Source: Oceanispirochaeta sp.
Lineage (GTDB): Bacteria; Spirochaetota; Spirochaetia; DSM-2461
Assembly: GCA_963666275.2 (NCBI GenBank)
Contig: CAXXOA010000002.1
Coordinates: forward strand, 192,001-256,000
Direction: 5' to 3'
Length of the DNA: 64,000 nt
Shown: positions 18,085-19,539 of the stretch, piece after piece
Layout of the letters: every line of letters begins with the position of its first letter
How positions within the stretch are numbered: position 1 is the stretch's first letter
Program-made: the position numbers and the translations under genes
The notes under the pieces: model-generated
Database searches by the model: none
What the model was told of the DNA's origin: nothing
The model's input: the letters and a program-made list of their open reading frames with translations, nothing else

Positions 18085-18174
18085 TATTTTATCTCCCTGA
18101 TATAAAATACAAGCTAAATAGGCTGGCTTTAAAAGTCAATTAAAGTTGCCTGAAAAAACTGATACAAAAAACAG

Positions 18175-18203
18175 TTGACATAAAATACCGCATTCTATAT
18201 GAT
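18175..18203 (+). promoter_or_regulatory. Sigma70 promoter of the tRNA operon
   Basis: TTGACA-17 bp-TATGAT just upstream of tRNA-Arg. Confidence 0.8.
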
Positions 18204-18216
18204 ACAGCCATCCTGT

Positions 18217-18292
18217 GCCCCGGTAGCTCAGGGGATAGAGCAGCCGCCTCCTAAGCGGCAGGTCAGACGTTCGAATCGTCCCCGGGGTACCA
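18217..18292 (+). tRNA. tRNA-Arg (anticodon CCT)
   Basis: Acceptor GCCCCGG/CCGGGGT, anticodon arm GCCGC-CTCCTAA-GCGGC, TTCGAAT loop, encoded CCA. Confidence 0.95.
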
Positions 18293-18320
18293 TTTTTTTT
18301 CTGCACAGGATTGGACAATT

Positions 18321-18394
18321 GGAGGCGTAGCGAAGATGGTTATCGCGCCGGCCTGTCAAGCCGGAGATCGCGGGTTCGAGACCCGTCGCTTCCG
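18321..18394 (+). tRNA. tRNA-Asp (anticodon GTC), copy 1
   Basis: Acceptor GGAGGCG/CGCTTCC, anticodon arm CCGGC-CTGTCAA-GCCGG; no encoded CCA. Confidence 0.95.
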
Positions 18395-18396
18395 TA

Positions 18397-18585
18397 TCCC
18401 TTCGAGACCGCTGAAATACCTGTTACAGGTCAGAGCGGGATCGACAGCTGAATGTTCCCGTTAGCAATAACGGAAACCTCTGAGCCGCAAAGGGTCTTTT
18501 ATACTCCGCGAAGGAGACCCTTTTATTGATAAGCGGAAAACGGTACTGTATACCGTAAAATACAGCGTCTTGCCCTTTAGGGCTT
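18397..18585 (+). ncRNA. Candidate structured RNA between the two tRNA-Asp genes
   Basis: Several stems (ACCTGT/ACAGGT, CCGTTA-GCAA-TAACGG, AAAGGGTCT/AGACCCTTT, ACGGTA/TACCGT); ends complementary. Confidence 0.4.
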
Positions 18586-18595
18586 TACATATACT

Positions 18596-18669
18596 GGAGG
18601 CGTAGCGAAGATGGTTATCGCGCCGGCCTGTCAAGCCGGAGATCGCGGGTTCGAGACCCGTCGCTTCCG
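18596..18669 (+). tRNA. tRNA-Asp (anticodon GTC), copy 2
   Basis: Identical to copy 1. Confidence 0.95.
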
Positions 18670-19105
18670 TACACAATAACTTTAGAAAGCTGTCCTTTTC
18701 GGGATGGCTTTTTTTTGCCTGAAAATAATTCGGGTCTCGAAGCGGAAGGTCCGGCGCGATGCTCGCAGCGCAATCCGGCAGGGATGCCGGATTAGGACCT
18801 GGAGCCGGTCAGCAGGGAGGAGGCAGGATGCCGACAACCGGAGGAGTGACCCGTCGCTTCCGTACACACTAACTTTACAAAGCTATCCTTTTCGGGATGG
18901 CTTTTTTTTTGCCTGAAAAGAATTCGGTTCTCGAAGCGGAATAGCTGGCGCGAATACTTGCAGCGCAAACCGGCAAGGACGCCGGTTTAAGGTATGGAGC
19001 CGGCCCGCAGGGAAGAGGCAGGATGCCGACAACCGGAGGAGTGACCCGTCGCTTCCGTAAATAAGAACCTTTTAAAGCTGTCCTACTCAGGATGGCTTTT
19101 TTTTT
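18670..19105 (+). repeat. tRNA-Asp-linked tandem repeat: two ~194-bp units plus a third terminator
   Basis: Units 18670-18862 and 18863-19057, each starting with a terminator and ending in tRNA 3' sequence GACCCGTCGCTTCCG. Confidence 0.9.
18686..18716 (+). terminator. Intrinsic terminator after tRNA-Asp (repeated near 18878-18910 and 19075-19105)
   Basis: AAAGCTGTCC-TTTTCG-GGATGGCTTT followed by a T-run. Confidence 0.8.
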
Positions 19106-19539
19106 GCGGCGGCCGCTTTCAGAGGTTCTATAACCATCAGAAGAATCAGCACTGTATAGAGAGGGACGATCATGAGGACTCCGAAATTCAGCCCCAGGAC
19201 TTCGGGACTATCCAGATGAGCTCCGATTCCGATAGCTCCGATGATCGTCCAGACAAAGGCATTGAGAATGAAAATGTTTCTGTAGGTTCTCAGAAACAGG
19301 AGGATCTGATTCTGAGAGTTTCCAGAAAGACTGTTTTCCCGACGGAAGATTTCATCATAGAACCCTTTCTGATCTTTCAGGGGGAATATCATTGATATGA
19401 GCAGAAAAGGCGGAACAATCACCAGAACAAGAGAAGCAATATCAACATAGAGATTCACGGAATTCCCCGTGACGACGATGGCGGCCAGAACCAGAAGAAA
19501 AACCATAATATTGAGTAAACAGAAGCGGATTTTAGTCAT
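19087..19539 (-). CDS. Membrane protein (about 4 TM), third gene of the ECF operon
   Basis: Hydrophobic segments; overlaps the upstream gene. Confidence 0.75.
   Translation of the reverse strand: MTKIRFCLLNIMVFLLVLAAIVVTGNSVNLYVDIASLVLVIVPPFLLISMIFPLKDQKGFYDEIFRRENSLSGNSQNQILLFLRTYRNIFILNAFVWTIIGAIGIGAHLDSPEVLGLNFGVLMIVPLYTVLILLMVIEPLKAAAAKKKPS

Follow-up and report, generated by a model that had tools for sequence, protein, structure and literature searches.

The window analysed here, a stretch of 64,000 nt from Oceanispirochaeta sp. (GCA_963666275.2, contig CAXXOA010000002.1, positions 192,001-256,000, forward strand), contains on its plus strand a small tRNA cluster and, behind it, two tandem units of a folded repeat. 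The cluster consists of tRNA-Arg(CCT) (18217..18292) and two tRNA-Asp(GTC) genes of identical sequence (18320..18395 and 18595..18670), the second of which is the repeat's host gene, and it is preceded by a sigma-70-like promoter (18175..18203) with 11 of 12 consensus matches. This promoter is likely the sole source of transcripts through both units, within which a consensus scan detected no promoter-like site. The locus is flanked by an M20 peptidase gene upstream and, downstream on the opposite strand, by two short ORFs with no Pfam match and an ECF-type sigma factor. The 199-nt spacer between the tRNA-Asp genes (18396-18594; locus L003) was ruled out as a further copy of the element, as neither BLAST nor our model matched it to the bodies; it holds several hairpins, starts with a direct T-loop-like 9-mer and has short blocks that are kept in its ortholog in genome G004.

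Behind the second tRNA-Asp gene lies intrinsic terminator 1 (18686..18716; an 11-pair hairpin and U tail, -12.4 kcal/mol), which was missed by the promoter and terminator scan that listed terminators 2 and 3. Unit 1 opens with an arm (18731..18741) that is the exact reverse complement of host positions 54-64, covering the T-loop and the 3' T-stem, continues into a body with a covarying fold (18742..18847), and closes with a 16-nt direct copy of the tRNA-Asp 3' end that starts at T-loop position 59 (18848..18863). After terminator 2 (18879..18910; hairpin and U tail, -13.4 kcal/mol), unit 2 repeats this order with an arm that has one mismatch to the host (18925..18935), a body matched by our model at 125 bits (18936..19042) and a second 16-nt copy (19043..19058), and terminator 3 follows (19074..19105; hairpin and U tail, -12.6 kcal/mol). 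Unit starts are spaced 193 and 195 bp apart, and the two bodies are 84% alike. The original prediction for this DNA had described this layout of two units of 193 and 195 bp, three terminators and copies of the tRNA-Asp 3' end, together with body starts that nearly reverse-complement the tRNA T-arm; these claims were borne out, the copy being 16 nt long, and the central hairpins (18772-18793 and 18967-18988) and the other motifs it quoted are present as written.

Within the body of unit 1, helix P2 (18747-52 with 18795-800) closes P3 (18754-71) and the central hairpin P4 (18772-93, loop AGGGAT), and 3' of P4 a long helix interrupted by G.A mismatches is capped by P6 (18822-32, loop AGGAT); in unit 2, P4 lies at 18967-88 (loop AAGGAC) and P6 at 19017-27 (loop AGGAT). 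This fold is real. In an alignment of 19 copies, double-sided changes occur at 22 of 24 pairs and pairing holds in 94.5% of cells, a level above all slid controls and reached in 0 of 500 shuffles, with the consensus structure derived from the same sequences as were scored; mutual information in sets of 116 and 43 sequences aligned to the model recovered the same helices, and structure is kept between bodies just ~60% alike. The covarying fold includes the helices of the central hairpin, for which covariation between the two units had been proposed. Single-sequence folds of the units gave z values of -0.29 and -1.35, so support for the fold comes from covariation and not from single-sequence folding energy. 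Stem cells hold 83 G.U and 57 A.C among 3498, tRNA stems 36 and 2 among 552, and the G.U share is 8.9% in the predicted folds of 71 adjacent terminators. Because G.U is scarce and A.C nearly as frequent, the selected fold could be that of RNA or of single-stranded DNA, and the counts suit a fold at the DNA level at least as well as one of RNA.

The units are rich in GGA: unit 1 has 10 sites against a mean of 4.6 in approximate dinucleotide shuffles (0 of 1000 as high), and unit 2 has 7 against 3.6 (15 of 1000 as high). Two sites per unit lie in terminal loops, those of P4 and P6. The P4 loop carries GGA in 130 of 159 copies (97 of the 116-sequence set), 49 of 118 canonical P6 loops have CGA instead (52 GGA and 41 CGA in the 116-sequence set), and 60 of 159 copies have GGA in both. 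The remaining GGA sites of unit 1 are variable, each occurring in 2 to 54 of 116 copies, and several non-loop sites look like the G-N-A strands within symmetrical internal loops, whose outer pairs are only 76% paired. Of the earlier claim that each unit has at least five conserved GGA sites, two of them in hairpin loops, the enrichment and the two loop sites therefore stand, whereas the other sites vary between copies; conservation among homologous copies, which that claim depended on, holds for P4 and is partial for P6. At the GGA/CGA position the loops tolerate C or G and almost never A or T. This preference, the low G.U share with its near-equal A.C, the presence of the folded core within a ~290-bp element with terminal inverted repeats in another genus (g2), and the stability of tandem G.A and GNA/GNA motifs in DNA would all suit a mobile element of single-stranded DNA, of REP or MITE type, whose loops are sites for a transposase or another DNA-binding protein and whose likeness to CsrA sites is incidental. 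We consider that reading unlikely: every host-linked copy lies on the transcribed strand, 3' of a stable-RNA gene, decayed copies inflate the A.C counts, and the loss of loops coincides with the loss of csrA, as set out below.

The body, ~105 nt long, is not confined to the tRNA-Asp genes, as the original prediction of an Asp-specific array would have it, and forms a dispersed family at nine tRNA or tmRNA loci of this genome. An iterated profile search of the genome's contigs returned 12 matches, all 12 on the same strand as, and 35-259 nt 3' of, a tRNA or tmRNA gene; the nine loci comprise Asp, three Met-anticodon genes, two Gly, Leu, tmRNA and a partial copy at Cys, in a genome with 61 tRNA genes and one tmRNA gene. 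A second idea, that GAAGCG at the body start pairs with the terminal CGCTTC like an acceptor stem, is refuted, since GAAGCG is a host-independent part of the body: it opens 20 host-linked copies, just four of them Asp-linked, and is absent from six of ten Asp-linked copies. A covariance model built from 19 copies (R1) matched 30 of 41 relatives, including 23 of 24 within the same family, and copy number in the genus ranged from 1 to 28 per genome; under stricter filters it matched 11 of 151 genomes of the phylum. The copies behind other tRNAs and the copy-number variation that the original prediction proposed to look for were both found. The set analysed, 169 copies after removal of eight duplicates and drawn from part of ~214 R1 matches, has 151 copies behind a tRNA, tmRNA or tRNA fragment (141 behind tRNA or tmRNA genes, 10 behind a fragment), 8 at contig edges and 10 unlinked, and the 141 represent 20 anticodon types and tmRNA as hosts. 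The 22 phylum-level matches that were inspected also lie behind tRNA or tmRNA genes; some of them nearly abut the gene and lack a terminator, which is thus a non-essential part. To look beyond the spirochaetes, 80 of at least 113 loci listed by a pattern scan were examined; the 16 with strong model matches (E below 1e-8) are all titled as spirochaetes. The size of the element is constant, at ~105-135 nt, at its 21 host types and throughout the phylum, and the Asp locus is occupied in several members of the genus.

Tandem units number two at the Asp locus and at least ten behind one tRNA-Met in genome G020 (L056, units of 180 bp); a further array behind tRNA-Met in G016 (L053) has four units of ~137 bp. 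In several genomes (L077, L009, L031, L082) the units alternate with a second short repeated motif, starting with CCCTTAGG, which comes after the 3' copy. Remnants, either terminator plus arm or arm plus the first body bases, occur behind tRNA-Arg(CCG) and after the last unit of several arrays (G000:C1:2236649-2236710, G000:C1:2573250-2573340, L322, L315). At L027 (G000:C2:974870-975023), a copy of the tRNA-Gly(GCC) 3' end stands 137 nt downstream of the gene, preceded by a hairpin with a CAGGAAG loop; neither profile nor model matches this stretch, which is possibly a second, diverged TLR type. The ~290-bp element of genus g2 (G024, G011; L057:1378-1670, L123, L058) has no tRNA link; its end was counted 368 times in G024, between 47 and 83 times in three further g2 genomes and once in the Oceanispirochaeta genome, and shorter forms of 140-165 bp are without the folded core.

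The ends of the repeat follow its host. The general layout is host 3' end, spacer or terminator, inverted arm (host positions 54-63), body, and direct copy from about position 57. Of 151 host-linked copies, 142 match at least 8 of 11 arm positions, a filter that inflates the match to the own host; among the 115 distinct copies in this set, arms match their own host at the variable positions 57, 59 and 63 at 0.98, 0.97 and 0.87, against 0.49, 0.41 and 0.37 for other hosts. Own-host agreement stays at 0.87-1.0 across positions 54-63, drops to ~0.7 at 64-65 and is down to background by ~70. The 3' copy, scored in 89 of the 115, matches at 0.02-0.10 at positions 54-55 and at 0.91-1.0 at positions 57-66, and the full 15-nt run from position 59 is present in 63 of the 115, the rest being shorter. 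On these comparisons both arm and 3' copy are tailored to their own host gene. In a thermodynamic fold of the read-through RNA, the arm pairs with host or copy at a probability below 0.03; as the tRNA is misfolded too, this counts little against such pairing.

Such ends also recall the scars of integrative elements, and the repeats could be passive attL/attR relics, immobile and homogenised by gene conversion. The att sites of tRNA-targeting integrases begin within the T-loop, as the direct copy does; many last units have shortened 3' copies, arm-only remnants exist, and some copies adjoin island-like DNA (L007). We nonetheless regard relics as a very improbable explanation, as compensatory changes over the whole body need continued selection, scars would not be expected to keep one size throughout the phylum and at 21 host types, and no integrase is adjacent in the Oceanispirochaeta genome. 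Whereas tRNA-targeting integrative elements hold an integrase between their att repeats, the nearest of ten integrase matches in this genome lies 139-511 kb from each of the nine element loci; at the tRNA-Asp locus the distance is 201 kb, in line with the original remark that no integrase is present.

The core is probably mobile, to judge from how bodies and hosts are combined. In family f13, bodies behind different hosts of one genome are 95-97.5% identical, and in the genus bodies are ~58-62% alike regardless of shared host or genome, with 43 of 62 nearest neighbours behind a different host. One copy is a chimera: its arm is that of tRNA-Gly, its 3' copy that of tmRNA, and its body clusters with those linked to tmRNA (support 0.948). 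If old copies underwent ectopic gene conversion, identical bodies could arise with no new insertion. Preferential movement between hosts with alike T-loops was considered and dropped, the correlation between body similarity and host T-loop similarity not being significant (r = -0.09, p = 0.14). No mobilising gene was found with the copies: across five genomes checked for Y1 transposases, the seven matches in the Oceanispirochaeta genome each lie more than 168 kb from any copy, and G007, which has 28 copies, has no match; GIY-YIG genes, also sought in five genomes, are never adjacent to copies; and the first downstream ORFs of 97 loci, reviewed by eye, include no recurring mobility gene. The repeat differs in this from REP/REPIN sequences with RAYT, in which a Y1 transposase is flanked by the repeats. 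A non-autonomous element aimed at tRNA 3' ends, one of two readings offered originally, is accordingly well supported by the tailored ends at 21 host types, the 1 to 28 copies per genome in one genus and the near-identical bodies behind different tRNAs.

The other reading offered originally was a CsrA-sponge-like RNA array. Both csrA and fliW are present in the Oceanispirochaeta genome, overlapping one another behind flgL, and its CsrA has Asn55, which we take to be typical of FliW-controlled CsrA. In all four flagellin leaders (G000:C1 1662732, 1743658, 1744759 and 1984549) a CA-N-GGA-UG hairpin precedes a GGAGG ribosome-binding site; these are predicted CsrA target sites, and one of the hairpins agrees with the P4 hairpin of unit 1 in 20 of 21 bases. 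Of 17 long-stem CsrA-type hairpins in the genome, seven are element copies. Nine further perfect hairpins with CsrA-type loops lie outside elements and flagellin leaders, two of them identical and near contig starts (C2:2465, C3:4747), the other seven at C1:400999, C1:624892, C2:58923, C2:1005726, C2:1496492, C2:1543089 and C3:112418.

Family f13 offers a contrast, as no csrA was found in 41 of 41 of its genomes and none over the cut-off in nine more, nor any flagellin in the four tested. R1, trained on loop-bearing copies, found ten copies in f13, none of them loop-bearing, and a second model (R2) built from seven of these ten gave 75 matches in 14 of 101 f13 genomes, with up to 13 copies per genome; in the 41 relatives R2 found just seven full-length copies, all already known. 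Of 67 distinct f13 copies, 57 lie behind tRNA or tmRNA genes and four behind a fragment. None of the 67 has a GGA terminal loop, and the two that match the CsrA-hairpin pattern do so in the linker; in csrA-positive genomes, a CsrA-type hairpin with a GGA terminal loop occurs in 125 of 148 copies, twice in 52 of them, and phylum-wide a CsrA-type hairpin occurs in 18 of 22 matches. Loops were lost in two ways in f13: G208 and G229 keep P4 with the substituted loop AGTAG, and in other copies P4 itself is deleted. In one copy (L350) the P3 loop includes a CAGGGATG string, but the short stem that would close it is absent. The contrast concerns one lineage, itself also without flagellin, and does not amount to a statistical test. 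Neither R1 nor R2 matched another csrA-less family (f7, four genomes) or G159, which therefore supply no second contrast, and across the phylum csrA is too common (148 of 151 genomes) for its distribution to be informative. Two genomes with no csrA match, G001 and G012, keep the loops; each is a draft assembly (85% and 95% complete, respectively) and belongs to a csrA-positive genus. They were excluded from the 148 copies, and would count mildly against the link between loops and csrA if the loss of the gene is real.

Since the scaffold persists in the csrA-less f13, the core is independent of CsrA; since these csrA-less relatives keep the repeat and lose the loops, the loops likely bind CsrA. 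We thus suggest that the loops, which go with csrA, are a probable CsrA-binding accessory of the element. The CsrA idea is in this way upheld in part, by the presence of csrA and fliW, the P4 GGA, the likeness to flagellin leaders and the loss of loops in f13, although the element thrives without CsrA. A dedicated CsrA-sponge array is unsupported, as each unit has at most two loop sites and no promoter of its own and lies behind strong terminators.

These features also bear on the possibility that the repeat is a domesticated host regulator, its units processed from tRNA transcripts and kept as CsrA sponges, with copy number tuning the dose. Loops that match the flagellin-leader hairpins and are absent where csrA is absent, structure conserved between bodies ~60% alike, an Asp locus occupied in several members of the genus and the precedent of E. 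coli RrB (PMC8144298) would all be expected of such a regulator. Yet the element persists in genomes without csrA at up to 13 copies, occurs in 11 of 151 phylum genomes when csrA occurs in 148 of the 151, offers at most two loop sites, no promoter of its own and a position behind terminators, and resides in a genome in which fliW overlaps csrA; moreover, deletion of rrA/B/F in E. coli had modest effects (PMC8144298). On balance, domestication seems improbable to us.

The repeat is of a kind already known. tRNA-linked repeats (TLRs) have been described in E. coli since 1978 (PMC8144298, citing Egan and Landy 1978 and Rudd 1999). There are 22 of them in E. coli, at ten loci; their defining feature is a stretch of 18-19 bp that repeats the 3' end of the gene upstream, and in all that time no function has been known for them (PMC8144298). 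The spirochaete repeat shares the layout that defines them: a position in tRNA or rRNA operons (151 of 169 copies), 3'-end identity to the upstream gene (16 bp in both units) and one to several tandem units. It is a TLR by layout, and it is not a member of the RtT, TwoAYGGAY or CsrB families. A search of Rfam with positions 18100-19200 at E values up to 10 found no family for the body; RtT RNA (RF00391), which E. coli tyr and lys TLRs match, and TwoAYGGAY (RF01731) were both unmatched. By inspection of the sequences, the lysQ and tyrT/tyrV units of E. coli K-12 also open with an inverted copy of the host T-arm, of which the accessible text of PMC8144298 makes no mention, and with filters off R1 gave weak, in-register matches to E. 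coli arg and lysQ TLRs (E 0.016-0.35). In E. coli K-12 the serV-argV-Y-Z-Q cluster with three TLRs stands directly 3' of csrA (L307). The 19 tRNA-linked TLRs of E. coli are reported to have low CsrA-prediction scores, and RrA/B/F to be read-through transcripts with five GGA sites, two in loops, that bind CsrA in vitro at about 100 nM through such loops, as shown for RrB (PMC8144298). Like the spirochaete units, RrA/RrB/RrF are each a TLR between two terminators, and RrB has a hairpin with the same CAGGACG loop; unlike them, they lie behind 5S rRNA at a position fixed across Enterobacterales, in a host with CsrB/C and Hfq. Only the hairpin of RrB is scored by R1 (E 0.013), the body as a whole not being matched.

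Other RNAs with such loops differ in architecture. CsrB/CsrC and RsmX/Y/Z resemble the repeat in having CA(N)GGAYG loops on short stems, the consensus of the CsrB repeat, and csrA in the host, yet they are stand-alone, with a regulated promoter of their own and many loop sites, against at most two, no promoter and host-derived ends here. TwoAYGGAY is a repeated structured element whose A(N)GGAY loops are proposed Csr/Rsm sites and whose large copy-number variation suggests mobility, the link between the two being unresolved according to its description (bioRxiv 10.64898/2026.09.22.753630); it has sister hairpins on one basal stem, whereas P4 and P6 are not sisters and an AYGGAY P4 loop occurs in ~22 of 159 copies, and no tRNA link is described in the accessible part of that preprint. 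For CsrA sites a hexaloop consensus has been given, and in the Campylobacter jejuni flaA leader ANGGA hairpins are CsrA sites, a two-hairpin RNA being able to titrate CsrA (PMC4894983). Oceanispirochaeta resembles that CsrA-FliW-flagellin system in its fliW and csrA behind flgL and in flagellin leaders with ANGGA hairpins like P4; in C. jejuni the titrating RNA is the flagellin mRNA itself and not a dispersed repeat. In Leptospira, FliW is the presumed CsrA antagonist, and one predicted CsrA-related ncRNA, from Leptospira biflexa, is cited (PMC8668096). The accessible texts of PMC8632094 and of a preprint that reports raised coverage but no circles for rttR (bioRxiv 10.1101/2024.07.17.603846) contain nothing on a spirochaete TLR family, nor did our literature search, with most subscription papers and supplements outside its reach, find one described. 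What is new is the contrast with csrA loss and the likeness to flagellin leaders.

Taking these lines together, we favour, at a probability of about 0.6, a gene-less folded tRNA-linked repeat with host-matched ends that spreads among tRNA and tmRNA genes and whose loops bind CsrA in csrA-positive spirochaetes, a reading drawn from comparison of sequences. Such a repeat would spread by recombination at the T-loop with an enzyme supplied in trans; its arm may pair with a T-loop, that of its own 3' copy or of the target, and so set the junction between positions 56 and 57, and new copies may arise by templated copy-in or conversion. Arrays would expand through unequal crossing-over, and copies would be lost through recombination between direct repeats. 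A single CsrA dimer would bind the one or two CA(N)GGAYG loops of a minor read-through RNA, as may happen on flagellin leaders, and any titration would be at most weak and growth-linked, beside FliW. A bolder reading, which we offer tentatively and think rather doubtful, is that TLRs are cross-phylum gene-less mobile elements whose 5' arm guides them to the tRNA T-loop by base pairing and is refitted to each new host gene, the spirochaete branch having acquired a mimic of the flagellin-leader hairpin. If that were true, transcription of tRNA genes would release CsrA decoys in step with growth rate, and these would be the RNA antagonists that FliW-type bacteria have seemed to lack.

Our findings make an old question about TLRs directly testable, through the contrast with csrA loss and the likeness to flagellin leaders. 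The problem splits in two. One part is a scaffold that spreads from tRNA gene to tRNA gene with no need of CsrA; the other is a set of loops that accompany csrA and are lacking where the gene is missing. For the loops, nature offers matched variants for a binding assay, namely loop-bearing, CGA-loop and loop-less copies, and for the scaffold, recently spread, near-identical copies are material for how the ends get tailored. If the loops bind, these repeats would be candidate RNA antagonists of FliW-type CsrA.
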